Source of the DNA: Candidatus Parcubacteria bacterium
Lineage (GTDB): Bacteria; Patescibacteriota; Microgenomatia; UBA12405
NCBI GenBank assembly: GCA_023396915.1
Contig: JAEWUV010000002.1
Coordinates: forward strand, 86,087 to 150,086
Reading direction: 5' to 3'
Length of the DNA stretch: 64,000 bases
Positions within the stretch are counted from its first letter, which is position 1. Each line of letters begins with the position of its first letter. Made by a program: the position numbers and the translations under genes. The notes under the pieces are model-generated. The model saw only the letters and a program-made list of their open reading frames with translations, was not told the DNA's origin and searched no databases. Below, one piece after another: positions 1 to 26,112 of the stretch.

Positions 1-313
1 GACGACCATCAGCACGTAAAACCCGACAACAAAAGGAGTGAAAAGTTCCCGCCGTCAACTGCACAGACTTGGCAGGTAAGCCCGCAAGAAGTTTTGACAT
101 TCTATTTTTCATTTCTTCAGCGGCTTTGTTGGTAAAAGTTAAAAGAAGAATTTGGTCAGGGGTGGCTAATTTTTGTTCGATAAAATAGGCGGCGCGATGA
201 GTTAAAACACGGGTCTTACCACTACCAGCTCCGGCCAAAAGTAAAAGTGGAGAACCGATGTGAATAACGGCCTCTTTTTGTTGGGGGTTTAAACCTTCTA
301 AAATATCAGACAT
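1..313 (-). CDS. UvrD/PcrA-family ATP-dependent DNA helicase, N-terminal part (gene continues beyond the window start)
   Basis: Reverse-strand translation from the ATG at 313 reads [45 protein letters not shown]...[13 protein letters not shown]. This matches the Walker A motif and motif Ia of the UvrD/PcrA helicase N-terminus. Confidence 0.7.
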
Positions 314-322
314 GTAGATTTA

Positions 323-2650
323 CTATAGACGGTAGATACTGGTTTGACCAGACTGAAAAACAACTTTGGCACCAATTTGTTCAAATTTTTTTGGGTCTAA
401 AGTTTTATATTTTTCGTATTCTTTGGCACCGATAAAAATATATTCAACTTTATATTTTGATAAAAGATCTTTTACTTCAGACAAATTAGTTTCATCTGTT
501 TCTGAATTAAATTCAGTTTTTGGAAACTCCACAGGTAAAACAAGTCTTTGATTGGGATGAATAATCGAAGGGTTTTCTAGGTTATTAACCTTAGCAATTT
601 CAATCCATAAAAATTCATTTTTTAATTCATTTTTGGCAATATTCCAAAGACTGTCTCCTGTTTGTACAGTATAAGCTTTTTGATCTTTATTATTTTCAAT
701 ATTTTCGGTTGATGATGTTGAAAAAAAATTATAGATTTTATCAACATCTGTCTGACGGGCGGCGGGGGCATCGTAACCACCACGCCAGAGCCATTCATGG
801 ACAATCCAACCTTCGACAGTAGGCAAACCGGTAGTAGAGGAAATTTGATTAAAAGTGGTGTAGCTATCGCCTACCGCTTCTAACATAACCGGTTGACTGG
901 AAATATTTTGATTAATCCATAAGACTGCTTGGTAATTATCCGGATAAAGTTTTTCTAGATACTTTAACCCATCTAAACCTTTGTAGTTTTTTAGATCATT
1001 GTAATAGGATTTAATGGCAAAATATGGATAAAACATATGAATAAAAAAAACGGTTAGAAAGCAAAAAAAGTAAATAAACTTAATAATCTTTGATTTAAAA
1101 AGATAAGAAAATCTAATCAGAACATAACCAGAAGAGAGAGAATAAAGGATAAAAGCCTGATACACAAGTTTGAACATGGTATTGGCCCGACGATATTCAT
1201 AAATATAAATGTCTTTGATATAAATTAGTTCCGGAATAAGAATTAATAGTGAGGCAATTAAAATTAACGAAAATACAAAAAAATCAGATTTAGTAATTTT
1301 TTTTCTGAAAGGAATAGTAAGAGAAAAAGGTAGGCAGATTAACCAAAAACCACCATAAAGAATAAGCAATTGATAAAAAGGTGAATGGCCATCGGCAATT
1401 TTTATGCCCTCCATCATGGGGATGAAATTGAGGGAAAATGGATAGGAAAAAAGGTACCAAAAAGCAATCACTAATAAACCGTTGATAAAAGTTTTGGCTA
1501 AATTTCTAATATTAAATTCATTAGCATTAATTAAAAAAGAAAAGACGGCTAGAACTAAGCCATAAACAGCAAAATCCCAGGCGTTGGTCATATAACAAAT
1601 TGATAAAACAAAGCCGGAACCAACGATAAATTTCCAATTAAAAAAGTTTTTACTTTTCTCAACAGTAATAAATAGAAAGGCCAGAAATAAAATAACAATA
1701 AAAATATCATTCATGTGACCGTGAAGATCGGAAACGACAAAACTGTAAAGAGGAAATTCATGGATAGTTTTGTCATTAGTGTCCGGGTCATGACCAATAA
1801 AACGGGTAGCGTCAGGATACCAATAAGAGTTCGTTGCTTTAGAAATGGCTTTTTGATTTAAAATAAAATGATTATTGTTCTGCTGGTAATCAAGTTTGAT
1901 AATTTTATAAAGTGAGTGAAGATTGCCGCCAAAAGTAAGAAGTAAGGCAGAAATAAGACCGGCTAAAATAGCAACACGAAACCCTTTCCTAACCTTTCCC
2001 TTGACAGGGCAAGGAACTAGGTACGTTATATTGGAAACTAAGGAAAAAGCACTGACAAAAGTAAGAGAGCAAACTGTAGCGATGGACAGGTTGTATCCAA
2101 CCGAAGAAATAACAGTAGAGAGTTTGGTGATTAAGGCAAAAATTAAATGACCGAAATAGTAGTAATTGATTGTTTCGCCAGCAAACCACATGTCTTGTGG
2201 AGGTAGAAACTGAGATCTCAAAGCTGAATTAACAAATCCCCAATCCATATATTTTTCTAAGCCCTCAATATCAGGAGCAAAACCCCGAACATAAGACCAT
2301 AAAGTTAAAATCAGAAAAAAAATCAGTTCTTCAAAAATAAAAACACGATAATGTTTTTTGAAATCAGAAAAAAAACTTTTATATGTTTTATTTTTTAGCA
2401 GAAACCAAACATCAAATAAAATAAAAATGGTAATTAAAAATAAGAGTCCGGTATAGGTAAACGGAATAAGTTTAAAGACTCCGAAGATTAGGGAAAAATA
2501 AGTTAGAAGAATCAAAGAGACAGTTTTACTGAAAATATAACCTTTGTCCCAAAATTTATTAAACAGAGAAACGGTTATGGGTAAAGACAGAATTCCCAAC
2601 AAAAAAATAGTTAGCCACCAATTAAAAATGAAATGAAAATCAGAAAACAT
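323..2650 (-). CDS. DUF2298 (Chlor_Arch_YYY) polytopic membrane protein with a C-terminal LysM domain
   Basis: Many transmembrane segments. Carries the signature INYYYFGHL motif. C-terminal YTVQTGDSLWNIAK...NPSIIHPNQRLVLP matches a LysM peptidoglycan-binding domain. Confidence 0.55.
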   Translation of the reverse strand: MFSDFHFIFNWWLTIFLLGILSLPITVSLFNKFWDKGYIFSKTVSLILLTYFSLIFGVFKLIPFTYTGLLFLITIFILFDVWFLLKNKTYKSFFSDFKKHYRVFIFEELIFFLILTLWSYVRGFAPDIEGLEKYMDWGFVNSALRSQFLPPQDMWFAGETINYYYFGHLIFALITKLSTVISSVGYNLSIATVCSLTFVSAFSLVSNITYLVPCPVKGKVRKGFRVAILAGLISALLLTFGGNLHSLYKIIKLDYQQNNNHFILNQKAISKATNSYWYPDATRFIGHDPDTNDKTIHEFPLYSFVVSDLHGHMNDIFIVILFLAFLFITVEKSKNFFNWKFIVGSGFVLSICYMTNAWDFAVYGLVLAVFSFLINANEFNIRNLAKTFINGLLVIAFWYLFSYPFSLNFIPMMEGIKIADGHSPFYQLLILYGGFWLICLPFSLTIPFRKKITKSDFFVFSLILIASLLILIPELIYIKDIYIYEYRRANTMFKLVYQAFILYSLSSGYVLIRFSYLFKSKIIKFIYFFCFLTVFFIHMFYPYFAIKSYYNDLKNYKGLDGLKYLEKLYPDNYQAVLWINQNISSQPVMLEAVGDSYTTFNQISSTTGLPTVEGWIVHEWLWRGGYDAPAARQTDVDKIYNFFSTSSTENIENNKDQKAYTVQTGDSLWNIAKNELKNEFLWIEIAKVNNLENPSIIHPNQRLVLPVEFPKTEFNSETDETNLSEVKDLLSKYKVEYIFIGAKEYEKYKTLDPKKFEQIGAKVVFQSGQTSIYRL
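1981..2016 (+). repeat. Degenerate copy of the REP-like hairpin element, embedded in-frame in a coding sequence
   Basis: The core tttcccttgacagggcaagg is identical to the copies at 15381 and 63482. On the minus strand it encodes PCPVKGKVRKG within the DUF2298 protein. Confidence 0.35.
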
Positions 2651-2651
2651 A

Positions 2652-3236
2652 TTATTTTATTAGAAAAATAAAATCAAAAATTGGTTTAATAAAATTAATC
2701 ATAAAAAGGGGGAACTGAATCTGTTTAATTAAAACTCCTATTATTAGACCAATAATTATTCCTCCAAGAACATCAATCGGATAATGGAGCCCTAATATAA
2801 TTCTGGCTAAGATTAAAGGTAGGGCAATAATTAAAAACCAAAAAGGGCTAATTAAAATACCGGTATGAAGAATCAAGATGAAAAAGAAAACTGCCTTGAT
2901 GGCATGCCCGGAAGGGAAACTCCCTTTTTTATACCAGGATTTTAAAAGACCATTGGGTAATACATTGTTGTTTAGATGAAGCGGACGTTTCCAAAGTGAT
3001 TTAGTTTTTAGAACTTTTTCAACGATTTCACTAATAATAGTGGCAAAAAACAGTTGCCAAAAAATATTCGTATCTTGCTTGATTAAAAGATAGGAAATGA
3101 AAAAGAAAAAGACCCAAATGATATAGTTAATAAGGATTAAGAATTGATTACCGTATTTAGTTTGAGAAACATATTTGAAAAGATCTTTTTTTGGTTGCCA
3201 GAAAAAAATTTTTTTTAAAAGAGTATTTGATTTCAT
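2652..3236 (-). CDS. PAP2-family (type 2 phosphatidic acid phosphatase) membrane phosphatase
   Basis: All three PAP2 motifs are present: KxxxxxxRP (KSLWKRP), PSGH (FPSGHA), and SRxxxxxHxxxD (RIILGLHYPID). Multiple transmembrane helices. Confidence 0.6.
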   Translation of the reverse strand: MKSNTLLKKIFFWQPKKDLFKYVSQTKYGNQFLILINYIIWVFFFFISYLLIKQDTNIFWQLFFATIISEIVEKVLKTKSLWKRPLHLNNNVLPNGLLKSWYKKGSFPSGHAIKAVFFFILILHTGILISPFWFLIIALPLILARIILGLHYPIDVLGGIIIGLIIGVLIKQIQFPLFMINFIKPIFDFIFLIK

Positions 3237-3240
3237 AAAA

Positions 3241-4290
3241 TTAAAATAAAAGTTTGGCTAATTTGAGAATGCCTTGGCTCCAGGGAACCCGATGAGAAAT
3301 CCCCTTCTGACCCTCAAATTCTGAAAGATGATTAATATACCATTTATAATTTTCAATCAAAGCCTGTTGATTGGAATATTTTGGTTTAAAATTTAATATT
3401 TTTTGAGCTTTATTTATAGAAACAAAAGAGTCAGTAGCGGCTGTTTCATAAACCCAGGCATAAAGGGGAGATAAATGGAGAGCTTCTAAAACTTTTAATA
3501 AAAAAATAGCTGGAGCGGCGGGAATGGTAACTATTTTTTTACCAAAGCCAGCATAATCTAAGACTGATTGATAATCCTGTCGCATGGTTTTAAATTCTTT
3601 GGCTCCGATATTAAAAACATCATTAACTTTTGATTTACTTAAAGTCATAGTCGACCAAATGGCATCACAAAGGTCTTTAACGGCCAGAAGTTGATATCGA
3701 TTTTTACCATCACCTAAAAGAGGAAATCCGTGTCCGTCTTTGGCCCAGTCATAGAATAAGGCAAAGACCCCCAATCTTTCTGGACCAACAAATGATTTTG
3801 GGCGAAGAATCGAAACACATAAACCTTTTTTTCTAAAATCGCGGCAAAATTTTTCGGCTTTAATTTTTGATTCACCATAAGGGCCAACACCAACAACTTT
3901 GTCAGTTTCGTAAATCGGGTGATGTTTCGGGACCCCATAAACGGCAGTTGAAGAAATATAGACAACCCGTTTTACCTTATTTTCTAAAGCTGATTGTAAA
4001 ACATTTCTAGTACCGTCAACTTCGGTTGAAATAATATCTTCTTTTGAATACAACGGTAAAGCGGCGGCGAAGTGAAGAACAACATCGGCACCTTTCATAG
4101 CCTTGGTTAATGTTTTTTTATCACGAATATCGGCAATAAAACTGGTAATTTTTTTCTTCTCGGGATAATTAAATTCAGCAATATCATAGTTAATAACTTT
4201 TTGATTTTTTTTGAGTAAAAAGCGAACCATATTGATTCCTAAAAATCCTGATCCACCGGTAATGAAAATAGTTTGAGTTTTGTTGTTCAT
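3241..4290 (-). CDS. NAD-dependent epimerase/dehydratase (extended SDR family)
   Basis: N-terminal Rossmann motif IFITGGSGFLG. Catalytic YxxxK motif in YGESKIKAE. Length of about 350 aa fits the extended SDR family. Confidence 0.75.
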   Translation of the reverse strand: MNNKTQTIFITGGSGFLGINMVRFLLKKNQKVINYDIAEFNYPEKKKITSFIADIRDKKTLTKAMKGADVVLHFAAALPLYSKEDIISTEVDGTRNVLQSALENKVKRVVYISSTAVYGVPKHHPIYETDKVVGVGPYGESKIKAEKFCRDFRKKGLCVSILRPKSFVGPERLGVFALFYDWAKDGHGFPLLGDGKNRYQLLAVKDLCDAIWSTMTLSKSKVNDVFNIGAKEFKTMRQDYQSVLDYAGFGKKIVTIPAAPAIFLLKVLEALHLSPLYAWVYETAATDSFVSINKAQKILNFKPKYSNQQALIENYKWYINHLSEFEGQKGISHRVPWSQGILKLAKLLF

Positions 4291-6038
4291 TATTTTTTGT
4301 TGGTATTTTTAAATATTATAACCCGAGGATGATCATAAACGGTGAATGATTCGTCGGCTGATTGGTCATTAATTTCCAGACCTAAAAAGGAAGGGTTATT
4401 ATCAAATTCAGCAACTTTGATATATCCCAATTTACCGCTAAAAAGATTTTGATAGTAAGCGGCAGTACTGGTGTAGCAATAACCTGATGGAAGATTATTA
4501 CAATCAGTTAGTTTTTGAAGTGGAACATAAAGTCGATTACTGGCAATAATTAAATAGTCAGCTGAGGAAAGCTGACTGAAGATGTTGGACCATTTATCTG
4601 GTAGATTGTCAGAATTATATAAAGGAAGGTCGATTAAATTGTAATTAGTATACCCAAGTGGTAAACCATCATCCCAATGTTCTCGAAGAATAGTGCTATT
4701 AGCCGGAATATTTTGGTTGATCCAATTGGTGGCTAAAACCCGGGTATTAGGAAAATTATAAATAGTCATAAAAGCGAAAAGCCAAAAAAGGTTGAAACAT
4801 AAAAAAATAGTGATGAGGTATTTTTTAAAAGTACTTAAAATACTAGCAATAAATATCGCCAGGATAGGATAAAGAGGAAGACAATACCTCATAAACTTAA
4901 CAGCAAAACAACCAACAACTAAAAAATAGGCAATAAAAAAAGAAAAAATAATTAGCTGTGATCCTTCTGATGTTTCATTTCCTGGAGTAATTAATCCTTT
5001 TATTAATTTTTTGATAGTGATAAAAATTCCTAATAAAGCAAGTAATCCAAAAGACGGACCTAAGCCCCATAAAAAAATATTTTTAATTTGATACCAATAA
5101 GGAACAGTATGAACATATTGAAGAGTATAAGGAAAAACAAAAGCATTTTTGGTCATGGCATTTTGCTCATTAATTTGTCGCCAAAAAGTGGTGAAATCAA
5201 AAAGAGCAAAAGGTTCACAAACAATAAAGGTGATGACAGTAAAAACTATTATTAGTAGTAAATAAAAAATTATTTTTTTAAATTTAAAAAAACGATTTTT
5301 TAGCCAAAATTTAGGACTTAGAACTGAGATTAAATATTGTTTAATTTTTTTTAAAAAACTGATTTCTTGACTAAAAATTTCTTTTTTGAGACTAAGTAAA
5401 GTTTCGACTAAAAAACTAAAGAAAAATGAAATAACCAGAACTGTGGCACTGACTTTGGTAGCCAGAGCTAGGCCGAAACAAATACCGGAAATAATAGCGT
5501 TTTTGACGCTTGGTGTATGGTAAAGAATTAGTAAACGGTAAAGTGTCAGACAGATAAAAAAGGTGAGTAAAGTATCAACAGCGTAAAAATGGGAAAGTTG
5601 GATGGGAAAAACTGATAAAGCATAAATTATGGCGGCTGATAAGCTTGTTTTGTGGGAAGAAAACAATTTTTGAGTGATTTGGTAGATAAGTAAAATAGTA
5701 AAAGAATCAAAAAGGGCAGAAATTACCCGGCCAAGTAAATTAATTTTGTCGTAAGTCAGAATTTGAGGATTAAAGACAGAGAAAAAATAAGCTGAAAATT
5801 TTAAAAGATATATAGGAAGAGATCCATAGGCAAAAAATTTGGGATTAAGAGAAGAATTCGGATTAAATAAGCTAAAAAAAGAAAATTCTTTTGGAAAACT
5901 TATGTTCATAGCAACCATGGTAATTTGCCGTTCGTCAGGATGAAGATGAAAACCCTGATCCCAATTTAAATGATAAATTCGCAATATAAAGCCAATAACA
6001 AAAATCAAAAACAAAACCCACTTATTCATAATTTTCAT
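4290..6038 (-). CDS. GT-C glycosyltransferase (GT39/PMT_2/ArnT-like, polyprenyl-phosphate-sugar dependent)
   Basis: Polytopic membrane protein with the N-terminal HLHPDERQ loop motif (the DE motif of ArnT/PMT-type transferases). A large C-terminal soluble domain is present. Confidence 0.6.
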   Translation of the reverse strand: MKIMNKWVLFLIFVIGFILRIYHLNWDQGFHLHPDERQITMVAMNISFPKEFSFFSLFNPNSSLNPKFFAYGSLPIYLLKFSAYFFSVFNPQILTYDKINLLGRVISALFDSFTILLIYQITQKLFSSHKTSLSAAIIYALSVFPIQLSHFYAVDTLLTFFICLTLYRLLILYHTPSVKNAIISGICFGLALATKVSATVLVISFFFSFLVETLLSLKKEIFSQEISFLKKIKQYLISVLSPKFWLKNRFFKFKKIIFYLLLIIVFTVITFIVCEPFALFDFTTFWRQINEQNAMTKNAFVFPYTLQYVHTVPYWYQIKNIFLWGLGPSFGLLALLGIFITIKKLIKGLITPGNETSEGSQLIIFSFFIAYFLVVGCFAVKFMRYCLPLYPILAIFIASILSTFKKYLITIFLCFNLFWLFAFMTIYNFPNTRVLATNWINQNIPANSTILREHWDDGLPLGYTNYNLIDLPLYNSDNLPDKWSNIFSQLSSADYLIIASNRLYVPLQKLTDCNNLPSGYCYTSTAAYYQNLFSGKLGYIKVAEFDNNPSFLGLEINDQSADESFTVYDHPRVIIFKNTNKK

Positions 6039-7567
6039 AGATTATTATTTTTGAAAATTCTAATGGTTGGGTTGTCAAAAACCGACCAGGTTTCTTCGGC
6101 ATTTTCGGAATTTAAAAAAAGGCTATTTGATTTGGAAAAGGTTTTAATTTGAGAAAAACCTAGCTGGCCGGAAAAAAGTTTTTGATAATAATCTTGCGAC
6201 ATAGGAAATGATGGATTATTTTGATTTTTAAAAACTCGACGAGAAGGAACAAAAATATATTCGCTTTGATTGATAACTTTGGATAGCTCATCCCCTTTTT
6301 GATTTTCATCTAGGGTATAAAAATCAAAATTGGTAATATTTAGTTTGGAATTGAATAGAGGTATGTCAACAACATTGCCGCCCTCTGACAAAACATTACT
6401 ACTTATCGGAATGTTTTGATTAACCCAGTTTGTGGTCTGAATTCGGATATCGGAATTAAAATAAGTGCTAATAAAAAAATAAATGCCCGGCAGAATGCTG
6501 AAAAATATTAAAAAAACTCGGATAAATTTATTTTTGATTTCCCTAAAGAAAAATAAACTTAACAGCGGAGCAATAAAAAAAATTGGAGACATAAAACGGG
6601 TCCATTTGGAAAAAAGTTGACCCTGATAAATAAAGAAAACAAGTGAGGAAAATAAAGTAATTAATAGGTAAATGTTTTTTTTGTTTTTAAAGAAATTTTT
6701 GACAATAAAACCAAAACCAATAAAACTAAAAATAAAGATAAAAATACCATTAGTGTAGGGAAATATATTTTTAAATTGGAACAAATAAGGTAAGGTGCCA
6801 ATAAATTGACGAGTATAAAAAACAGGGATGGACCCATTAGCAACACCGATTTCATATTTCATTGAGGAAATAAATTCCCGATAATCAATCAAATTAAAGG
6901 GAGACAATATTACAGAGAAAATGAGAGCGACTAAAATTAAAAAATAAAATTTAGGGATTAAATCAGAAATTTTTTTAGGGTTTTCTAAAAAAAGAAATAA
7001 AAAAACAAAACAAATAGGAGCTAAAAAAATAAGAGCTGAAATTTTGGTGGCAATACCGATACCGGAAGTAATAGCGGCAAAAAATAAATATTTATATTGA
7101 GGGTTATCAAAAATAAGAAAAGAGAAATAAATATTTACAGCAAAAATAAAAATAAGAATTGATTCGGTGGTGCCAAAATGGGCCAACTGAATTAACCCAG
7201 GAGTAAAAATAATTAAGATAGATAAAATAGTGGCTAATTTGTTTGAATTAAATATTTTTTTGCCAATTAAATAAAAAATAAAAACCGAAATAGAAGAGAA
7301 AAAGGCTGACCAGAACCTAAGGGTTAGATTAATATTAAAGTTGTTATGTTGAGGGGTGGTAAAAAATGTAAGGTAAAGAGGGAATTGTCCGTAAGCAAAA
7401 AATTTGGGATTAAAATTTGTTGGATTTAAACGTAAAACAGCTGAGACCATATTGTTTTCATCCGGATGAAAAGCAAAACCGTTGGACCAATTAAGTTTCC
7501 AAAATCGAGTAAATAGAGTTAAAAAAAACAAGAAAATAAACAAGAAAAAGCGTTTTTTAGATGACAT
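6035..7567 (-). CDS. GT-C glycosyltransferase (GT39/PMT_2/ArnT-like), paralog of the upstream gene
   Basis: The AFHPDENNMVSAV motif follows the first transmembrane helix. Architecture parallels 4290..6038. Its stop/start overlaps the neighbour by ATGA. Confidence 0.6.
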   Translation of the reverse strand: MSSKKRFFLFIFLFFLTLFTRFWKLNWSNGFAFHPDENNMVSAVLRLNPTNFNPKFFAYGQFPLYLTFFTTPQHNNFNINLTLRFWSAFFSSISVFIFYLIGKKIFNSNKLATILSILIIFTPGLIQLAHFGTTESILIFIFAVNIYFSFLIFDNPQYKYLFFAAITSGIGIATKISALIFLAPICFVFLFLFLENPKKISDLIPKFYFLILVALIFSVILSPFNLIDYREFISSMKYEIGVANGSIPVFYTRQFIGTLPYLFQFKNIFPYTNGIFIFIFSFIGFGFIVKNFFKNKKNIYLLITLFSSLVFFIYQGQLFSKWTRFMSPIFFIAPLLSLFFFREIKNKFIRVFLIFFSILPGIYFFISTYFNSDIRIQTTNWVNQNIPISSNVLSEGGNVVDIPLFNSKLNITNFDFYTLDENQKGDELSKVINQSEYIFVPSRRVFKNQNNPSFPMSQDYYQKLFSGQLGFSQIKTFSKSNSLFLNSENAEETWSVFDNPTIRIFKNNNL

Positions 7568-8486
7568 AGACGATAGTAATCATCATCAAACCCCAAAGAA
7601 GAAGAGATAAAAGTAAAGGAATATCGGTGGCAACAACCCGTTCAGGACGCTCACCTTCTTGCATTTCGAAAATAATCTGACCATAACGCATAATGCCAAA
7701 GATTACTGGGATTAAAGTAATCATGTACCATTTTCTGTATAAGGCATTGGGGAAATTTTGAGACATAAATGAATGGATGATTCCATTAAACGAGATTGGT
7801 TCTTCCAAAAAAGTAAACATAGCATAAGCGATGAGAGTGCAGACAGCAAACATGGTGGTATAAAAATTAAGAAGATTTTTACCGTAACCGGCGAGGGCAC
7901 TTCTGGTGATGATACCGGTATTCCCGAGTTCAGTTCTCCTTTTACCGCTAGCCAAAAATAAAGAAAGGAAGACAACGGCTAGCATAATCCAAATCGGCAA
8001 ATGATAGCCGGTGGCAATTTCTCCGGCGTAGGTACGAAGAATAAAGAAAAAGGCAATTCCAATAATATCGATAATTGCCTTTTTCTTGAGAAAGAGAGAA
8101 TAGGTATATTGTAGGATGATAAAAACAAAAGAGAGCCAGAAAAATCCAGTATTAATAAATACGGCAATAGAAAGGCCGGTAAATAAAAGGATAAAAGCAA
8201 TTAGAATAGCAAATGGTTGGGAGATATCTCCGCGGGCAAGAGGACGACTTTTTTTGACAGGATGAAGCCTGTCTTTGTCAACGTCCATGACATCATTAAT
8301 TAAATAAGAAGATGAAGAAAGAAGACAAAAAACTATAAAAGCCAAAAGAGTTTTTGAAAATAAATTAATATCAAAGAGTTGTCCGTTTAAAATTAAGGCA
8401 GCAAAAATACCTAAATTTTTAATCCATTGAGCCGGACGTAAAGCCTCAAAAATAAATTTTATATTTGGTTTTGTTTCTTTGGTCAT
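7557..8486 (-). CDS. UbiA-family prenyltransferase, decaprenyl-phosphate phosphoribosyltransferase-like
   Basis: NDVMDVDKDRLHPVKKSRPLARG fits the UbiA Asp-rich motif with the HPxK...RP signature. About 8 transmembrane helices. Confidence 0.55.
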   Translation of the reverse strand: MTKETKPNIKFIFEALRPAQWIKNLGIFAALILNGQLFDINLFSKTLLAFIVFCLLSSSSYLINDVMDVDKDRLHPVKKSRPLARGDISQPFAILIAFILLFTGLSIAVFINTGFFWLSFVFIILQYTYSLFLKKKAIIDIIGIAFFFILRTYAGEIATGYHLPIWIMLAVVFLSLFLASGKRRTELGNTGIITRSALAGYGKNLLNFYTTMFAVCTLIAYAMFTFLEEPISFNGIIHSFMSQNFPNALYRKWYMITLIPVIFGIMRYGQIIFEMQEGERPERVVATDIPLLLSLLLWGLMMITIVYVI

Positions 8487-8494
8487 GTGTGATG

Positions 8495-9727
8495 TTATAT
8501 TTTTTTATAAAAGATAAAGGCAAATATAATTAGAGCTAAGGATAGCACCATAATAATACTAGTGGGGCCGGTGTTGCCTGTTTTGGGAACACCTGAAGAA
8601 GTGCTGGGAACACTGGTAGGGATACTGGTTGGCGTAGGGGTTGAGGTTGGTTTTATGGTAGGAGTAGCTGACGAAGAAGCAGTAAAAGATGTATTTGATT
8701 CTGCAGCTAAAACTATAAATTTTTTACTAATAGTATTATTATTTTCGTCAGTTAATGTGACAGTGTGTTCGCCGGGGCTTAGGTCTTGGGGCACTTCCCA
8801 ATCCCAGCTCCCATCTTCGTTTGTGGTTACAGAATCATTTATAGCCACTGGGGAATGAACTTCAATTTTAAGCTCGGATCCCGGTTGGGCAGTGCCAAAA
8901 AATTCAGGTCGCTTGGTAGACAAAGTTTCATTGTCACTAGGATTAGAAATTGTCAGAGGAGTATCAGTAGTAAAGTTATATTCATTATCCAATAAATTAG
9001 TTTGGGGTAATTCAATTTCAACAACCGGGCTTGGGGCAGAAAAATTGTTTTGTCCAATAATAATATCAGAGACTGGATTATTATGATTAGTATTGGAAAT
9101 AACTTGAGTTTGGGTTTGGTCATGGTTAATAACAACGATATTTTCTTCAGTATTTGAAGGGGGAGAAAAATAATCTGTTAATGATTCATTAAAACTGGTA
9201 GCGAGTGGAATATTCCACTCGCCAGAAGAAGTTACTAAGGATGAAAGAGGAGATGCTCCGGCAACCGAAAAATAAACAATAGCTTCGGTGGTTGGGGTTT
9301 TGTCTTGATTATAAATTCGTCCCCAAGCTAAGTTGGAGCTAGGCATTTGATTATTTGGTTTTTTGGCAGTTTTGAAATTAAAATTATCGGAAGAATATTT
9401 TTCCCCGTCACTGATAACGGAAAAAGTATAAACCTGAAATTCTTTTAAGGAAATTATTTCAAAATAATGAATCTTGCCTTTACCTTTATTATTCTCTATA
9501 GTTTGTCCAGAAAGGGAGATTGTTGAAAGACAGTCGGCTGAAGTAGTAAAAGAAATACTGGCAGAATTGTTGGTGATATTGGTTATTTGAAGGTTTATAG
9601 GGTCACAACTGCCACCAGCCCGGCTTGAGGTATTAGTCCGACGAGTGGCCAAAGAAATACCAAAATATAAGGTAAGTAAGAGTAAAATTAGACCAAAGAT
9701 AGTTGGTATTTTTTTCTCCTTTTTCAT
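8495..9727 (-). CDS. Secreted surface protein with a C-terminal sortase-type sorting signal (VPKTG, then a TM segment, then a basic tail)
   Basis: N-terminal signal peptide. A Thr/Pro/Ser-rich stalk precedes VPKTGNTGPTSIIMVLSLALIIFAFIFYKKI. Confidence 0.45.
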   Translation of the reverse strand: MKKEKKIPTIFGLILLLLTLYFGISLATRRTNTSSRAGGSCDPINLQITNITNNSASISFTTSADCLSTISLSGQTIENNKGKGKIHYFEIISLKEFQVYTFSVISDGEKYSSDNFNFKTAKKPNNQMPSSNLAWGRIYNQDKTPTTEAIVYFSVAGASPLSSLVTSSGEWNIPLATSFNESLTDYFSPPSNTEENIVVINHDQTQTQVISNTNHNNPVSDIIIGQNNFSAPSPVVEIELPQTNLLDNEYNFTTDTPLTISNPSDNETLSTKRPEFFGTAQPGSELKIEVHSPVAINDSVTTNEDGSWDWEVPQDLSPGEHTVTLTDENNNTISKKFIVLAAESNTSFTASSSATPTIKPTSTPTPTSIPTSVPSTSSGVPKTGNTGPTSIIMVLSLALIIFAFIFYKKI

Positions 9728-10005
9728 AGTTTATTAACTTTACCACTAGGGGTTGAATTAACTTCGTTATTGTTTGGGTAAAAATTAATAGAATTAGATT
9801 CGATATTTTCCGGCCTTTTTTCAATCTCTTCTATAATGTCTAAATCAAGATTTGGATTAATGGGAGTAAGTAATTTATTTGAATCAACTTCTTTGACTGG
9901 ATTGACTAAATTAAAATAACTTTTTTGAACTATACTAGAAAAAATAGTCAAAAAACTAAAGATAGAGATAAAGATAAAATAAACTGATAGTTTCTTTTTA
10001 TTCAT
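9724..10005 (-). CDS. Small signal-anchored protein, function unknown
   Basis: 93 aa with an N-terminal hydrophobic segment. Translationally coupled to its neighbours. Confidence 0.3.
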   Translation of the reverse strand: MNKKKLSVYFIFISIFSFLTIFSSIVQKSYFNLVNPVKEVDSNKLLTPINPNLDLDIIEEIEKRPENIESNSINFYPNNNEVNSTPSGKVNKL

Positions 10006-10600
10006 TATTTATCGGTAAATAAGGTAAATTAGTTGATATATCCAAGTTGATGCCGTCTGTGGTTTGATTAATAGTAATAGAGTTAATATCTATAAGACGT
10101 CGACCGTAAGTTATATTGTTAATCATATTTAAAAGACTTGAATAAGGTCCACCGAGAGAGAGATTAACGTCGTAAGAGTATTTTTGAGAGTCGGTATTTT
10201 TTTGATTAGAAAGATTATATTTGAGTTGTTTTATAGAAACATCTGATTTACGTGATATGGAAGAAAAATTTGAGGCTGTTAGATAAAATTCGGGATTAGA
10301 AGGGTAACTTGATTCTAAAATCTGAAATTTTTCCTGAGCTTGAGCATAATTACTTTGAGCAGAAACAACATTAATTATTTTTTGTTTCATCGACTTGGTT
10401 GTAAGTTCTTTTGACTTAATTTCACCAACAAGTTTAGAAATGGCGGAGGCAGTAGGAGCTATGGCGGTAATTAAAAATACAGTTACCAAAAGAAAAGTGG
10501 CGCTAATTTCGACATATTTTAAAAATTTTTTATTTTCTGCTTGACTCCGAACATATCGATAAATGGATTGATTTTTGAACCAACTAGTTTGTTCTATCAT
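9998..10600 (-). CDS. Bitopic membrane protein, PilO-like topology (tentative)
   Basis: Short cytoplasmic N-terminus, one transmembrane helix, then a coiled-coil periplasmic region. Length is about 200 aa. Confidence 0.25.
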   Translation of the reverse strand: MIEQTSWFKNQSIYRYVRSQAENKKFLKYVEISATFLLVTVFLITAIAPTASAISKLVGEIKSKELTTKSMKQKIINVVSAQSNYAQAQEKFQILESSYPSNPEFYLTASNFSSISRKSDVSIKQLKYNLSNQKNTDSQKYSYDVNLSLGGPYSSLLNMINNITYGRRLIDINSITINQTTDGINLDISTNLPYLPINNE

Positions 10601-11166
10601 ATAGTTTGAGAATTTTTAAAAACTATAGAGATGTTAACTAAATAATTATTTTCTTGCTGTTTTTTTTCAATTTGATTAATTTTAACTGTTTCTATGTTAG
10701 GGTTAAGGGTTAAATTTTTAATAAAATCGATAATTGATGTTTCATTAAAAGCGATTAAAGAAGCGGTGGCAGATATTTTTTTTAGGTCTTCTTCTTTGCC
10801 AACTGACAGATTTTTGTAAATAATATCTTTTGGAGTGCTATTGACCAAGGTGGCTATTTTTTGATCATATTGAGGGTCGTTACGATAAAAAGCCTGAATA
10901 AACTCAAGTCTTTGTTGAAAAGATTTAAATTCACTTTCAAACTCTTGAGTGCTTTCTAAGATAGCTTGTTGCTGACGAATTGTTTCTGAAAGATCAGAAT
11001 TTTTTCTGTCTAACCAAAATCTAGAGATAAAAGCTGAAACAACAATCAGTTCAGTAAAAACAATAACCCAACGGCCAACGGTAGTGAGCCATTTGATGGC
11101 TTTAGCACTAAAGGAATTAGGATTTTCCGAATCTGGCAATAAAGATAACTCCTTTTTAATAGGCAT
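10597..11166 (-). CDS. Bitopic membrane protein, PilN-like (tentative)
   Basis: The N-terminal LSLLP motif resembles the PilN INLLP motif. One transmembrane helix plus coiled coil, 189 aa. No PilM gene is adjacent. Confidence 0.3.
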   Translation of the reverse strand: MPIKKELSLLPDSENPNSFSAKAIKWLTTVGRWVIVFTELIVVSAFISRFWLDRKNSDLSETIRQQQAILESTQEFESEFKSFQQRLEFIQAFYRNDPQYDQKIATLVNSTPKDIIYKNLSVGKEEDLKKISATASLIAFNETSIIDFIKNLTLNPNIETVKINQIEKKQQENNYLVNISIVFKNSQTI

Positions 11167-11210
11167 ACATTTAAGTATATATGACTATTAGTTTAAATTA
11201 AATACTTATC

Positions 11211-12848
11211 CTATCTGATCCTATCTGAGGAGGGTTTTTTAAAAGTTAATTTGTTTTTAAATTTTAAAAAATATTTTTGATAATCCTGATACTCATCTAA
11301 TTTTAAGAATTTGACGCTATAAATATAAGAAATAATTCCAGTTAAACTGGAGGCAGAAAATACAATTGCTAAAGGAATAGTTCTGGTAGTATCAAGTAAA
11401 AATAAATCCATAAACTTGAGGCTTACCCAAGTAAAAATACCCATAAATAAAGAGGAAAGGAGTATTTTATTAACTTTTTTTAAGGTTTTTAGCCAATCAA
11501 AACCATCAACAAGTTTGATAAAGAAATAAAAAAGACCAACTGTTTGAATAAGATTTCCAATGGTTGAACTTATGGCTAAACCAATAACACCAAGCGAAGT
11601 AAAATTGATTAAAAGGAAACTAGTAATGACGTTAAAAAATAAAGAAACTAAGGAAACTTTAAAGGGAATTTTGGTATTGTGAAGTGCATAAAAAGAACGA
11701 ACTAAGATTTGAATTATAGCCTGACAAATAATAGCTGGAGTTAAAAAAGCTAAAATTCTGGCAGTGGTTAAAGTAGCTTCCCAAGGGAAGTTTTGAGAAC
11801 CAAAAAGGAGGCGGACGATGGCTAATCTTTGGACTAAAATAATAACGGTTACAGGCATAGCAATGAATAGACTTTGGGTAAGGATTTTGGCGATGGTATC
11901 ACGAAAATCCTTAAGTTCATTTCTGGCGATGTTTTTTGATAAAATTGGCAAAGAAGCCTGTCCAACAGTGGTTCCAAAGATACGGCTGGGAAGATACATT
12001 AGTTGTAAAGCCAAATTAAGCAAGGAGATAGAACCGACGGACAAACCACTGGCAAAAAATAAAGTAACGGTATTTTCAATTTCACCTAATCCAAGGGATA
12101 AACTACGAGGGATCATCAATCTAAAAACTTCTCTGACTTCTTTGAGTTTGGTGGTAATAATTAATTCATACTTAAATCCCTGACGTTTAACTACCGGAAT
12201 TTGGATGGCCAAATGGAAAAAAGCGCCGACAACAGCTCCGTAGACCACTCCGTAAATACCAAAAATCGGGGCTAGAGTAAAAATACTTAAGATGATAAAA
12301 AGGTTATAAACGATGGGAGAAAGGGCTGGAATTATAAAAATTTGGTTAACTTGCAAAATAGCAGTAATAAAATTACTGATTAAGAAAAAAATCTGAGCAA
12401 TAAGTAAAATTCTGGTTAAATTGACCATTAAATCTAACTGCTCTGGATTAAAACCAGCGGCGATTAAGTTATTTAGGGGTCGGGTAAAAATTAAAACAAT
12501 AATGGCGGCGACAGCAAATATTAAAAACAGAAGATTGATGACGCTAGAGGCAATTTTGTAAGCTTTTTTGGGATCTTTTTGTAGGCTCGCTGAAAATACC
12601 GGGATAAAAGAAGCGGATAAAGCACCGGTAACTAAAAGTTTAAAAATTAAATCGGGAAGGCGAAAAGCGGCATTGTAAACATCGAGCTGGGCGGTACAAC
12701 ATTTAAAAAAGGCAGCGTATAAAAAACGACTTCTGAGAAAACCTAAAATAGCAGATAATCCGAAAGTTACGGCTAAAACAATAGATGCTGACAAGATGGT
12801 ATGTTGTTTTCTTTGGGTGAAAGATTGGATTTTTTGGCTCAGCATCAT
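11211..12848 (-). CDS. murJ: Lipid II flippase MurJ (MviN)
   Basis: 545-aa polytopic protein. The N-terminus (LSASIVLAVTFGLSAILGFLRSRFLYAAFF...YNAAFRLPDLIFKLLVTGALSASFIPVF) aligns with the MurJ consensus. Confidence 0.8.
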   Translation of the reverse strand: MMLSQKIQSFTQRKQHTILSASIVLAVTFGLSAILGFLRSRFLYAAFFKCCTAQLDVYNAAFRLPDLIFKLLVTGALSASFIPVFSASLQKDPKKAYKIASSVINLLFLIFAVAAIIVLIFTRPLNNLIAAGFNPEQLDLMVNLTRILLIAQIFFLISNFITAILQVNQIFIIPALSPIVYNLFIILSIFTLAPIFGIYGVVYGAVVGAFFHLAIQIPVVKRQGFKYELIITTKLKEVREVFRLMIPRSLSLGLGEIENTVTLFFASGLSVGSISLLNLALQLMYLPSRIFGTTVGQASLPILSKNIARNELKDFRDTIAKILTQSLFIAMPVTVIILVQRLAIVRLLFGSQNFPWEATLTTARILAFLTPAIICQAIIQILVRSFYALHNTKIPFKVSLVSLFFNVITSFLLINFTSLGVIGLAISSTIGNLIQTVGLFYFFIKLVDGFDWLKTLKKVNKILLSSLFMGIFTWVSLKFMDLFLLDTTRTIPLAIVFSASSLTGIISYIYSVKFLKLDEYQDYQKYFLKFKNKLTFKKPSSDRIR

Positions 12849-12865
12849 ACGTGTATTATAAATTC

Positions 12866-12894
12866 TTGTAAATGATTGGTATATAGGATAGAAT
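12866..12894 (+). promoter_or_regulatory. Candidate sigma70-type promoter (TTGTAA, 17-nt spacer, TAGAAT) for rpsT, giving a near-leaderless transcript
   Basis: The -35 box lies at 12866-12871 and the -10 box at 12889-12894, with a 17-nt spacer. The rpsT ATG at 12902 is only 7 nt downstream. Confidence 0.35.
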
Positions 12895-12901
12895 ATCTCT
12901 C

Positions 12902-13192
12902 ATGCCAATAAGTTTATCTGCAAAAAAATCACTAAGAAAGTCTGTTAAAAATAACAGGAAGAATGTTTTATTTAAAACAAAACTAAAATTGACGGTTAAA
13001 AAATTTTTAGCCAAACCGTCGGCTGATGTTTTGAAGAATGTATATTCTCTTTTGGATAAAGCCGTAAAAAATGGTATTTATCATAAAAATAAAGTTGCCA
13101 GATTAAAGTCTAACTACTCTAAAAAAGTTAAAGGGGATGCCCAAACTGTCAAAAAAACTACTGCAAAAAAGGTCACAAAAAAAAGTAAATAA
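12902..13192 (+). CDS. rpsT: 30S ribosomal protein S20
   Basis: Begins SAKKSLRKSVKNNRKN, contains GIYHKNKVARLKS, and is lysine-rich. This is the typical bS20 pattern. Confidence 0.8.
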   Translation: MPISLSAKKSLRKSVKNNRKNVLFKTKLKLTVKKFLAKPSADVLKNVYSLLDKAVKNGIYHKNKVARLKSNYSKKVKGDAQTVKKTTAKKVTKKSK

Positions 13193-13226
13193 GGGTAAAT
13201 TTTGAACTTCTGGGTTAAAATCTGTT

Positions 13227-14657
13227 ATGGACAAATTTTTTATAACGACTCCGATTTATTACATTAATGATATCCCCCATATTGGGCATACCTGTACCAC
13301 AGTGGCGGCCGACATTGTGGCCAGAACCCATAAAATATTAAATGAAGAAGTGTTTTTTTTGACAGGAACAGACGAACATGGCCAAAAAGTAGCCGAATCG
13401 GCGGCTGAACAAAATTTAAAACCAATTGATTATTGCGACAAAATTTCACCCAGATTTAAGGAAGCTTGGGAAAATTTAAACATTAATTTTGACTATTTTA
13501 TAAGGACAACTGACCCAAATCATGAAAAAGTAGTACAGGAATTATTGCAAAAAATTTATGACAATGGAGATGCTTACAAAGATAAATACGAAGGACTTTA
13601 TTGTGTTGGTTGTGAAAAGTTTTTGACTGAAAGTGAGTTAGTAGATGGACATTGCCCCCTACACCCACCGGAAAAAACAGTAAAAAAATCAGAGGAAAAT
13701 TGGTTTTTTAGATTAAGTAAGTATGTTCCAAAATTGATTGAATTAATTGAAAATAATGAAACTAATTATATTTTCCCCGAGGGTAAAAGATCGGAAATCT
13801 TGGCTAAATTAAAAGCAGGAGTAAGAGATATTTCATTGTCACGGGAAAACGTGGAATGGGGAATTTCTGTCCCTTGGGATCCTAAACAAACAGTTTATGT
13901 TTGGTTTGATGCTTTAATTAATTATTACAGTGCGACACAATTTGTAGAAGGTAAAAAAGATTTTTGGCCGGCTAATGTTCATTTAATTGGAAAAGAAATT
14001 TTGTGGTTTCATACCGTGATTTGGCAAGCAATGTTGTTGTCGGCCGGATTTAGCGTGGATCAACTTCCTAAAAAAGTTTATATCCATAGTTTTTATATGA
14101 TTGATGGCCAAAAGATGTCAAAATCTTTGGGTAACGTAATTTCCCCAGGTCAATTAATAGAACTTTTTGGAGTAGACGGAGCGAGATATTTAATCGCCCG
14201 ATCTTTTCCAAACGAAAATGATAGTGATGTGGGAATCGAAAGATTTAAAGAAAAATATAATGCCGATTTGGCCAATAATTTGGGGAATTTAGTATCGAGA
14301 GTATGTAAATTGGCAGAGAACCAAACCCCTCAGTCCCTCGATAAACTCGGGACAGCTCCCCTTGATGAAGGGGAGCCATTCTTTAAATTGATCAATCAAT
14401 TTAAATTTGATGAAGCTTTTGGATGGGTGTTTTCAGAATTTGTTGATAAAACCAACAATTATTTAAACCAAGAAACTCCATGGAAGCTAGAAAAAAATGA
14501 TCCAAAAAGAAAAGAAGTTTTACTGACGTGTATTGCTAATTTGCAAAAGGCAGGATTTTATTTACAGGCGGTAATGCCAGAAACCGCTCAAAAAATATTA
14601 GATTGTTTTAATGGTGAAATTAAACCGCTAGAAAAGCCATTGTTTCCGAGGATTTAG
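13227..14657 (+). CDS. metG: Methionyl-tRNA synthetase (short form)
   Basis: Class I aminoacyl-tRNA synthetase HIGH motif (PHIGHTCT) and KMSKS motif (GQKMSKSLGN). A CxxC...CP zinc knuckle is also present. Confidence 0.9.
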   Translation: MDKFFITTPIYYINDIPHIGHTCTTVAADIVARTHKILNEEVFFLTGTDEHGQKVAESAAEQNLKPIDYCDKISPRFKEAWENLNINFDYFIRTTDPNHEKVVQELLQKIYDNGDAYKDKYEGLYCVGCEKFLTESELVDGHCPLHPPEKTVKKSEENWFFRLSKYVPKLIELIENNETNYIFPEGKRSEILAKLKAGVRDISLSRENVEWGISVPWDPKQTVYVWFDALINYYSATQFVEGKKDFWPANVHLIGKEILWFHTVIWQAMLLSAGFSVDQLPKKVYIHSFYMIDGQKMSKSLGNVISPGQLIELFGVDGARYLIARSFPNENDSDVGIERFKEKYNADLANNLGNLVSRVCKLAENQTPQSLDKLGTAPLDEGEPFFKLINQFKFDEAFGWVFSEFVDKTNNYLNQETPWKLEKNDPKRKEVLLTCIANLQKAGFYLQAVMPETAQKILDCFNGEIKPLEKPLFPRI

Positions 14658-26070: not shown

Positions 26071-26112
26071 AATTTATACTAATTTTATTTTATGATTTAA
26101 TAAAGGGTAATT

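Follow-up and report, generated by a model that had tools for sequence, protein, structure and literature searches.

Bacteria of the candidate phyla radiation (CPR) are uncultured, metabolically minimal epibionts whose surface chemistry is essentially unknown, and a long run of cell-envelope genes in one of them raises the question of what is assembled at that surface, and by which enzymes. The run occupies positions 323–12848 of a 64,000-nucleotide stretch (the window; approximately 33% GC) of contig JAEWUV010000002.1 from a Candidatus Parcubacteria bacterium, and the proteins encoded in the window have their nearest relatives in Candidatus Shapirobacteria, Woesebacteria and other Microgenomates-group CPR bacteria. 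It consists of eleven minus-strand open reading frames (ORFs) encoding, from first to last, the flippase MurJ, PilN-like and PilO-like proteins, a small membrane-anchored protein (sm93), a surface protein with a VPKTG motif, a UbiA-family enzyme, two glycosyltransferases of the GT-C type (GT-C1 and GT-C2), a short-chain dehydrogenase/reductase (SDR), a PAP2 phosphatase and a DUF2298 protein (Table 1). An original prediction, made from the sequence alone, had taken these genes for one dedicated transcription unit combining lipid II flipping, lipid-linked glycan synthesis and a surface-anchored substrate. All eleven collinear ORFs were present, and the family assignments (MurJ, PilN-like and PilO-like, UbiA, PMT/PMT_2 twice, Epimerase, PAP2, and DUF2298 with LysM) were borne out by Pfam and NCBIfam searches, in the case of PilN through its orthologues. 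The reading that we consider probable is a different one: the array would be a composite of three conserved envelope blocks, namely (a) murJ, (b) an orphan pilN–pilO pair with sm93 and a surface protein of wall-anchored type, and (c) a lipid-linked pentofuranose glycosylation system, which would form its biochemical core.

This reading turns on the UbiA-family protein, predicted from sequence comparison to be a polyprenyl-phosphate phosphoribosyltransferase of the Mycobacterium tuberculosis Rv3806c type, not a generic prenyltransferase. Its best match in the Protein Data Bank (PDB) was Rv3806c (8j8j, 9.5e-39), with true prenyltransferases at approximately 1e-7, and the NCBIfam DPPRS models ranked first. 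Both the NDxxDxxxD Mg/diphosphate motif (NDVMDVDKD, residues 64–72) and the second-loop R..E motif (GKRRTE, residues 181–186) were invariant in 17 homologues. When the phosphoribosyl pyrophosphate (PRPP)-site residues given in the Rv3806c structure paper (PMC10994848) were mapped through the UbiA–8j8j alignment, 10 of the 12 were identical, and these are invariant in the clade (R17, K23, Y61, N64, D68, K78, R81, Q126, Y129 and K134, corresponding to Rv3806c R22, K28, Y70, N73, D77, K87, R90, Q135, Y138 and K143); at the other two positions, Rv3806c Y157 is replaced by F148, a tolerated change that also occurs in mycobacteria, and K208 by S196, with R195 adjacent. The phosphoribose-specific residues of Rv3806c (K28, Y70, N73 and Q135) are not conserved in true prenyltransferases (PMC10994848). 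UbiA is 63–90% identical across approximately 90 species, which points to strong constraint. A scheme without pentofuranose, in which UbiA would be a quinone or lipid prenyltransferase and the GT-Cs would be PMT/ArnT-type enzymes using polyprenyl-phosphate mannose or another hexose, could appeal to the Pfam names PMT/PMT_2 and to source annotations that label some UbiA homologues '4-hydroxybenzoate polyprenyltransferase'. We regard it as very improbable: the similarity to Rv3806c lies 30 orders of magnitude beyond that to any prenyltransferase, the phosphoribose-binding residues are conserved, models of true 4-hydroxybenzoate prenyltransferases scored only 20–37 bits, and there is no GT2-type polyprenyl-phosphate-hexose synthase in the array.

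Characterized systems suggest how a synthase of this type would be put to use. In Citrobacter youngae O1/O2, a three-component system (UbiA-type synthase, phosphatase, flippase and GT-C) attaches pentofuranose extracellularly, and one optional enzyme, a GalE-like SDR, suffices to switch the donor from ribofuranose to xylofuranose (Kelly et al., PNAS 2024, PMC11127046); in M. tuberculosis, Rv3806c has the PAP2 enzyme Rv3807c as its partner for 5'-dephosphorylation (PMC11127046). In the array, judging by homology and active-site residues, UbiA would move ribose-5-phosphate from PRPP to polyprenyl phosphate at the cytoplasmic face; the 5'-phosphate would be taken off, most simply by PAP2; the cytoplasmic GalE-like SDR would, in this genome, epimerize the lipid-linked ribofuranose to a xylo- or arabino-pentofuranose; the donor would cross the membrane by a flippase, for which the array holds no candidate except MurJ; and GT-C1, GT-C2 and DUF2298 would put pentofuranosyl residues on an extracytoplasmic acceptor. 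The SDR has no signal peptide, and its proposed epimerase role follows from the precedent above together with its cassette-like co-occurrence with one type of GT-C. Lipid-linked glycan synthesis, as originally proposed, feeding extracytoplasmic GT-C enzymes is well supported. The genes do make up an envelope and glycan set; what had been missed is the key to the module, namely that UbiA and the epimerase point to a phosphoribosyl (pentofuranose) donor pathway.

For the transferases, GT-C1 and GT-C2 match Pfam PMT/PMT_2, and both retain an HPDE acidic motif after the first transmembrane (TM) helix. The predicted structure of GT-C1 (predicted local distance difference test score (pLDDT) 86.6) has a GT-C fold, with AglB, Pmt4, ALG12, ArnT, Pmt2 and STT3B as its best structural matches and AftA, AftB and AftD lower. 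DUF2298 has a multi-TM GT-C architecture with an extracytoplasmic loop after TM1, and its structural model, of moderate confidence (pLDDT 73.9), likewise indicates a GT-C fold, as all of the top 20 structural matches were GT-C enzymes; a LysM domain (about residues 533–673) is inserted in its C-terminal extracytoplasmic domain, a feature of only approximately 14 of 120 homologues. These folds would make three GT-C-fold transferases in the array. Sequence profiles of GT-C1 and DUF2298 found no matches among all PDB chains, and the fold was seen by structure prediction only; a profile–profile comparison of DUF2298 with GT-C1 gave a match of only 35 columns in the C-terminal domain and was not used as evidence.

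How these genes travel together was assessed in close relatives. Scanning species-representative genomes with a UbiA alignment yielded 80 loci (numbered with the prefix L), onto which the window proteins were mapped. The gene order recurs in approximately 70 Shapirobacteria-like CPR genomes at species level; practically all loci with coverage show a divergent rpsT followed by murJ–pilN–pilO–sm93–surface protein–UbiA–GT-C1–second GT-C–(variable)–PAP2–DUF2298(–pcrA). A lack of conserved synteny had been named in the original prediction as the outcome that would tell against it; the order is instead strongly conserved, and is kept in loci where PilO and the surface protein are down to 26–40% identity. 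Coupling within it is organized in blocks (murJ; pilN–pilO–sm93–surface protein; UbiA–GT-C1–(GT-C2); a variable cassette; PAP2–DUF2298), with the pilN, pilO, sm93 and surface-protein genes overlapping in relatives and UbiA and GT-C1 overlapping in 66 of 66 loci.

The segment from GT-C1 to PAP2 is a hypervariable cassette in which GT-C2 and the SDR are swappable. Orthologues of the window's 'A-type' GT-C2 (>48% identity) occur at only 12 genome-set loci, always with an SDR or DUF362 gene, and the remaining loci carry a 'B-type' second GT-C that is 30–35% identical to GT-C2. The window-type SDR (>60% identity) was found at eight genome-set loci, every time with an A-type GT-C2, and also in L089. 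At the four other A-type loci, a DUF362 gene (351–364 amino acids (aa)) fills the SDR slot (L005:10650-11723, L056:15815-16870, L066:12781-13839 and L081:14067-15161), which suggests that a non-homologous protein has taken over the putative epimerase step in an analogous role. Other cassettes contain FkbM or S-adenosylmethionine (SAM) methyltransferases or extra GT-Cs, and 30 loci have an opposite-strand GT4 glycosyltransferase. Such a cassette would diversify the glycan between species, and, against the eleven-gene module of the original prediction, GT-C2 and the SDR are confined to a minority of relatives. Two cassettes (L062:16698-19738 and L077:15834-18814) hold a DeoC-like aldolase, a PD-(D/E)XK nuclease and an RNase H-like gene and may be mobile or foreign insertions. 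Many of the contigs bearing loci L003–L082 go under the title 'uncultured Gammaproteobacteria bacterium', and one goes under 'Candidatus Methanoperedens sp.'; these taxonomic labels look wrong.

Beyond these relatives, the neighbourhood comes apart. The whole clade falls in one 50%-identity UbiA cluster, with the nearest other representatives 52, 49 and 45% identical; further loci came from a metagenome scan seeded with a three-sequence alignment of remote UbiA representatives, followed by hidden Markov model mapping. A sister clade retains pilN–pilO–surface proteins–UbiA–GT-C1–GT-C2, with murJ on the opposite strand and, between murJ and pilN, a 102-aa ORF that is probably rpsT by position alone. 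In remoter lineages (63 loci), UbiA is the last gene of an operon comprising tatD, a 497-aa membrane protein, a PMT_2 GT-C, a 117-aa multi-TM protein, a WecA/MraY-like Glycos_transf_4 protein and UbiA, and lies directly after the Glycos_transf_4 gene in 54 of the 63; there, an rpsT–pilN–pilO–sm93–surface-protein unit sits 6–9 kb from the UbiA unit, past groES/EL, lepA and a divergent murJ. L089 carries UbiA–GT-C1–SDR–GT-C2 with no PilN/PilO within 10 kb. This separation suggests that separable units of an old conserved neighbourhood have been compacted, in this clade specifically, into the window array. The remote operon is exemplified by L146:4852-10912, and its parts are conserved in 27–54 of the 63 remote loci; its 497-aa protein has no Pfam match and bears DADS and QERRW motifs that look like those of a processive GT2 synthase, and its 117-aa multi-TM protein is a candidate flippase.

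This history bears on whether all eleven genes form one dedicated operon whose products (MurJ, PilN/PilO, the glycan enzymes and the VPKTG protein) work as a single glycosylating and anchoring machine, a possibility that we judge improbable. The genes lie on one strand with overlapping or abutting junctions, as originally described (−11 to +8 nucleotides (nt), plus one 44-nt gap), and these are tighter than in the rest of the window: 8 of 10 array junctions are ≤4 nt, versus 12 of 41 same-strand junctions elsewhere (Fisher P = 0.008; Mann–Whitney P = 0.004). The order is held in approximately 70 species despite the low identity of the PilO and VPKTG proteins, and terminator-like signals were not above chance. 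Runs of 7–10 co-directional genes are commonplace in this genome, so collinearity alone says little and it is the tightness that exceeds background; even tight spacing is no proof of shared function here, because the run does not end at 323, as had been claimed, but extends into the unrelated genes pcrA and then guaA at spacings of 9 and 45 nt. The idea of one dedicated transcription unit also conflicts with the block structure and with relatives: in the sister clade and in remoter lineages, murJ is transcribed from the other strand and rpsT (in the sister clade, a probable rpsT) separates it from pilN; in the remoter lineages, the UbiA and pilN–pilO–surface-protein units are separate operons; L089 has a UbiA unit with no PilN/PilO near it; and opposite-strand genes stand inside the array before PAP2–DUF2298 in 31 of 54 close relatives, where PAP2–DUF2298 must be transcribed separately. 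In the array sequence, the total of promoter-like sites was not above shuffled expectation and the count of consensus terminators was likewise at chance, which cannot exclude internal promoters, and an Rfam scan of positions 1–13400 found zero RNA families.

Turning to the individual blocks of the composite, murJ, the first gene of the run, is divergent from rpsT (12902–13192, plus strand) and is found next to pilN in every relative, although it has the opposite orientation in the sister clade and remoter lineages; its adjacency to rpsT looks like a retained neighbourhood. Nothing observed links lipid II flipping, originally proposed as a function of the module, mechanistically to the remaining genes. 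Casting MurJ as the 'MATE-family flippase' of a three-component system was considered and dropped: the flippase described in PMC11127046 is a four-TM EmrE/ArnE-like protein, and this MurJ passes the lipid II equivalog cut-off.

The second block begins with two proteins whose homology to PilN and PilO is real at the sequence level. The PilN-like protein itself had no family match at the default threshold, but 36 of 38 orthologues matched PF05137 PilN (best 1.5e-7), and its N-terminus, KKE[IL]SLLP, is nearly invariant and resembles the PilM-binding motif. In a profile search against the PDB, its alignment with Myxococcus PilN (3jc8) was in register but not significant (E = 0.29), too weak to suffice alone, and it is the per-member Pfam scan that resolves the question. 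The PilO-like orthologue profile matched Myxococcus PilO (3jc8) at E = 1.2e-5, and the two families show weak profile–profile similarity to each other. In homology, bitopic topology and an SLLP sequence resembling the PilM-binding INLLP, the pair is like the PilM–PilN–PilO of type IV pili (T4P); unlike there, its constant neighbours are sm93 and a surface protein on the downstream side and murJ or rpsT on the upstream side, whereas Saccharibacteria PilM/N/O lie within complete T4P loci (PMC11623550). A six-frame scan of the window found zero prepilin or PilB motifs, and pilM, pilB, pilC and pilT were absent from the window and from the genes adjoining the pair in approximately 70 relatives. 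The PilN/PilO pair is thus an orphan in a non-pilus context, and a local T4P or sortase context was rejected, with motif scans of the window empty and no such gene among the 25 further window ORFs searched with Pfam. Its conserved partner is sm93, which comes after PilO in remote lineages too, and whose orthologues in 67 loci have in common an N-terminal anchor and a P-x-NPNLD...IEKR motif. The original description of this protein as small and secreted needs correction: its one N-terminal hydrophobic segment is a conserved anchor with no evident cleavage site.

The surface protein at the end of this block is relevant to the acceptor. The VPKTG sorting signal noted in the original prediction lies at residues 380–384 (window 8576–8590), followed by a hydrophobic helix and a YKKI tail and directly preceded by a stalk (TPTIKPTSTPTPTSIPTSVPSTSSG) that is 60% Ser/Thr/Pro. 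Like Gram-positive LPXTG proteins, it combines [VILM]P.[TS]G, a hydrophobic helix and a basic tail, retained in most of 67 orthologues, with an S/T/P-rich wall-spanning stalk before them; unlike those, the motif is VPKTG or IPKTG and degenerates to LYQSG or LIKSG in some species. Against the TIGR01167 LPXTG_anchor model it scored 15.6 bits (cut-off 15.9), 10 of 36 orthologues matched, and no sorting-signal model fitted better, so that the signal appears LPXTG-like but borderline; a TLxTC-type sortase motif was not found in six frames of the window or in the flanks retrieved. Between the VPKTG orthologue and UbiA, 35 of 68 relatives have an additional gene for a stalked surface protein. This second family (L024–L081; for example, L026:8956-9993) has no Pfam or NCBIfam match, a conserved N-terminal 'LV.QNQD.R..A' after the anchor, and a C-terminus of 'GPSPTRI.LP.[AS]G..FP' and a helix ending LLGFLILL without a basic tail (LPxAG-type signal), and may bear a distinct sorting signal.

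The leading acceptor candidates are the S/T/P stalks of these surface proteins, encoded just upstream of UbiA, with a wall polysaccharide about equally likely. The VPKTG protein, for which the original prediction had proposed glycosylation by the GT-C enzymes, is a reasonable candidate given its stalk and its position directly upstream of UbiA, although that target has to share its place with the polysaccharide. Further hints of a protein acceptor are the 8-nt VPKTG–UbiA spacing, the insertion of the second stalked gene at exactly that junction, the protein-glycosylating nature of the enzymes behind the Pfam PMT matches and the AglB/Pmt4 structural neighbours, and the Pseudomonas pilin precedent. 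That the same donor chemistry serves a wall polysaccharide or lipoglycan (arabinan-like or a secondary cell-wall polymer) and not surface proteins is a reasonable possibility. Characterized UbiA-type systems modify glycans, except for Pseudomonas pilin arabinosylation (PMC11127046); the remoter loci with UbiA after Glycos_transf_4 and with a GT-C and the 497-aa membrane protein upstream have a primer-plus-polymer layout; three or four GT-Cs, with GT4 and methyltransferases in cassettes, suggest a complex glycan; and the LysM inserted in DUF2298 is peptidoglycan-binding. This alternative has to contend with the lack of a priming transferase, polymerase or LytR–CpsA–Psr (LCP) ligase in the window array, with surface-protein genes that abut UbiA in both sister clades, and with the restriction of LysM to a minority of DUF2298 orthologues. 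Elsewhere in the window (32305–33567), a 420-aa protein whose sole detected domain is a C-terminal LytR_C could be a divergent LCP-type wall-polymer ligase, which bears on the polysaccharide acceptor.

A different question is whether PAP2 and DUF2298 belong to the pentofuranose pathway at all. PAP2 is always directly upstream of DUF2298 in relatives (median spacing 4 nt), the two are in many of them cut off from UbiA by opposite-strand genes, and among NCBIfam models PAP2 comes closest to undecaprenyl-diphosphate phosphatases, though far under cut-off. They might be a separate pair in which DUF2298 acts like an oligosaccharyltransferase or ligase in the en bloc transfer of a polyprenyl-diphosphate-linked glycan and the released polyprenyl diphosphate is recycled by PAP2, the 5'-phosphate of the phosphoribose then being removed by something other than PAP2. 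With DUF2298 as its constant partner, recycling by PAP2 is a serious alternative, and PAP2 is a candidate for either that role or the 5'-phosphatase of polyprenyl-phosphate-ribose-5-phosphate. We think the separate pair somewhat unlikely, however, with the PAP2 enzyme Rv3807c beside Rv3806c performing 5'-dephosphorylation in M. tuberculosis (PMC11127046) and no other phosphatase, including any HAD/PRP phosphatase domain, in the array.

Set beside known pentofuranose systems, the lipid-linked pathway proposed for the array has both likenesses and departures. The C. youngae genes ORF15–ORF14–ORF12 (with optional ORF13) match it in a UbiA-type synthase using PRPP, a required phosphatase step and extracytoplasmic GT-C transfer, and in an optional cytoplasmic GalE-like SDR (TGxxGxxG, YxxxK) carried as a gain/loss cassette. 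The array differs in that its phosphatase candidate is a separate PAP2 and not a fused HAD domain, in its three GT-Cs of PMT_2 and DUF2298 types in place of one GT136 enzyme, and in having neither a small EmrE/ArnE-like flippase gene nor an O-antigen backbone locus; its host is a monoderm-type CPR bacterium, and it is joined to PilN/PilO-like and LPXTG-like genes. With the mycobacterial decaprenylphosphoryl arabinose pathway (Rv3806c, Rv3807c, DprE1/DprE2 and Emb/Aft), it shares an Rv3806c-type synthase with matching PRPP-site residues, a PAP2 in the same locus and several GT-Cs that would use a lipid-linked pentofuranose outside the membrane; unlike that pathway, it has a single extended SDR, in some species only, and no DprE1 (flavin adenine dinucleotide (FAD))/DprE2 pair, its GT-Cs have no sequence similarity to Emb/Aft (PDB profile searches empty), and there are no galactan or WecA genes. 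In Pseudomonas aeruginosa, the GT-C TfpW uses a polyprenyl-phosphate-pentofuranose donor for Ser/Thr O-glycosylation of a surface filament, the group IV pilin, and the pentofuranose pathway (DPPRS/DprE homologues) is, as in the array, genetically linked to type IV pilus genes (PMC11127046); unlike there, the window encodes no pilin, PilM, PilB or PilC, and the candidate acceptor is an LPXTG-like Ig-domain protein.

Several observations weigh against the pentofuranose composite. UbiA scored 202.4 bits with NF008978, 5 bits short of the curated cut-off of 207. The SDR is generic by sequence (best solved-enzyme match 1.4e-17), and its substrate could instead be a nucleotide sugar. The coupling of PAP2 is with DUF2298, not UbiA, and remoter lineages have no PAP2 beside UbiA, which leaves the 5'-phosphatase role of PAP2 weakly grounded. 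GT-C fold similarity is silent on donor and acceptor, the top matches being a mixture of protein-, lipid- and glycan-modifying enzymes. No EmrE-, ArnE- or GtrA-type small flippase was found in the array, and there is no unassigned multi-TM ORF in 323–12848, where MurJ is the only transporter. A DprE1/DprE2 pair was not seen, with no FAD oxidase in the array or among approximately 45 window ORFs scanned. The UbiA of remoter lineages, finally, has a WecA-like transferase, a GT-C and a large membrane protein as its neighbours, with the surface-protein operon elsewhere, an arrangement that speaks for a polysaccharide acceptor. In the sister clade, a gene for an FAD amine-oxidase-like protein (403–417 aa) lies directly upstream of UbiA (L083:8764-9975, where it overlaps the UbiA start, and L085:1813-3066); it is possible that this is a flavin oxidase acting on lipid-linked ribose, in a DprE1-like role with a different fold family.

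Table 1 Features of the eleven-gene array and its borders, with junctions in the order of transcription (coordinates are window positions; negative spacings are overlaps).
Feature	Position or spacing	Strand	Basis or remarks
Best sigma-70-like promoter match of the region	12844..12872	-	TTTACA-17-TATGAT, 10/12 matches; overlaps murJ start; weak evidence
murJ, MOP-family lipid II flippase	11211..12848	-	PF03023 4e-77; TIGR01695 equivalog 263.9 bits, cut-off 235.55
MurJ/PilN junction	+44 nt		Read from sequence
PilN-like bitopic protein, 189 aa	10597..11166	-	N-terminal KKELSLLP, one TM (residues 29-47), coiled coil, C-terminal domain
PilN/PilO junction	ATGA, -4 nt		Read from sequence
PilO-like bitopic protein, 200 aa	9998..10600	-	PF04350 26.4 bits, cut-off 22
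PilO/sm93 junction	-8 nt		Read from sequence
sm93, small membrane-anchored protein, no known family	9724..10005	-	No Pfam/NCBIfam match; overlaps both neighbours
sm93/VPKTG-protein junction	ATGA, -4 nt		Read from sequence
Surface protein, 410 aa	8495..9727	-	Signal/anchor, N-terminal domain FN3-like by eye only, Ig-like Big_13 (29.9 bits), stalk, sorting-type signal
VPKTG-protein/UbiA junction	+8 nt		Read from sequence
Polyprenyl-phosphate 5-phosphoribosyltransferase, predicted (UbiA superfamily, Rv3806c/DPPRS type)	7557..8486	-	Sequence comparison
UbiA/GT-C1 junction	-11 nt		Read from sequence
GT-C1, GT-C-fold glycosyltransferase	6035..7567	-	Overlaps UbiA by 11-26 nt in relatives, always
GT-C1/GT-C2 junction	ATGA, -4 nt		Read from sequence
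GT-C2 ('A type'), second GT-C, in variable cassette	4290..6038	-	PMT_2 3.7e-13; HPDE at residues 33-36
GT-C2/SDR junction	TAATG, -1 nt		Read from sequence
Extended SDR, GalE-like NAD-dependent epimerase/dehydratase	3241..4290	-	PF01370 5.9e-40; TGGSGFLG 11-18, SST 113-115, YGESK 138-142
SDR/PAP2 junction	+4 nt		Read from sequence
PAP2 lipid phosphatase, candidate 5'-phosphatase or polyprenyl-PP recycling enzyme	2652..3236	-	PF01569 2e-16; intact K-x6-RP, PSGH, R-x5-H-x3-D motifs
PAP2/DUF2298 junction	+1 nt		Read from sequence
DUF2298 / Chlor_Arch_YYY (TIGR03662), third GT-C-fold enzyme	323..2650	-	Structure model
pcrA/uvrD 5' end	1..313	-	ATG at 313-311, 9 nt past DUF2298 stop; outside module; shows co-directional run going on

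In the rest of the window, Pfam searches of 25 further ORFs identified, apart from housekeeping genes, nothing but an additional GT-C paired with a divergent classical SDR and a GH130/GT4 cluster. The divergent pair (25381–27462) consists of an adh_short classical SDR (229 aa, 25381–26070), with no specific DprE2 match among 25 of its 224 matching families, and a fourth GT-C (449 aa, PMT_2) that weakly matches archaeal Agl23; the two could make up a further pair for lipid-sugar tailoring. At 35902–39072, on the plus strand, three genes with overlapping ends encode a GH130 (mannoside phosphorylase-like) protein, a GT4 and a weak GH88/C5-epimerase protein, forming a second small glycan-handling cluster. 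An ORF at 23585–24145 has a partial IS200-like Y1 transposase match (C-terminal part only) and lies beside an MgsA/RarA AAA+ gene, and a 366-aa ORF at 21900–23000 has no Pfam or NCBIfam match.

Taken singly, the families are known, as is the logic of the pathway. What is new is the occurrence and very high conservation of the pathway in CPR bacteria, its composition of PAP2 and three GT-Cs without DprE1/E2 or a small flippase, the assignment of DUF2298 to the GT-C fold (by structural model) and to this pathway context, the exchange of SDR for DUF362, and the linkage to orphan PilN/PilO and LPXTG-like proteins; a search of the accessible literature found no prior description linking CPR bacteria to a lipid-linked pentofuranose pathway. 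A broader proposal, which we offer as speculative and on the whole doubtful, is that Microgenomates-type CPR bacteria coat wall-anchored surface proteins or the wall with species-variable pentofuranose (ribose, xylose or arabinose) glycans by a DPR-type lipid pathway, with three corollaries if it is true: DUF2298/Chlor_Arch_YYY would be a new family of polyprenyl-phosphate-pentose-dependent GT-C transferases; one nicotinamide adenine dinucleotide (NAD)-dependent SDR, or elsewhere a DUF362 protein, would stand in for the two-enzyme DprE1/DprE2 epimerase; and the orphan PilN–PilO–sm93 would be a membrane scaffold coupling surface-protein export and anchoring to glycosylation, with no pilus.

Together, these results point to a lipid-linked pentofuranose pathway, so far tied to mycobacterial arabinan, some O antigens and Pseudomonas pilin, in CPR bacteria, where it would be among the best-conserved envelope features of the whole clade. 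They offer testable functions for DUF2298/YYY as a GT-C and for a one-enzyme pentofuranose epimerase, and a recurrent non-pilus context for PilN/PilO. A conserved synthase beside a hypervariable tailoring cassette is the pattern expected of a surface glycan under diversifying host or phage selection, and, if the pathway is confirmed, its pentofuranose epitopes could be handles with which to label or enrich these organisms.

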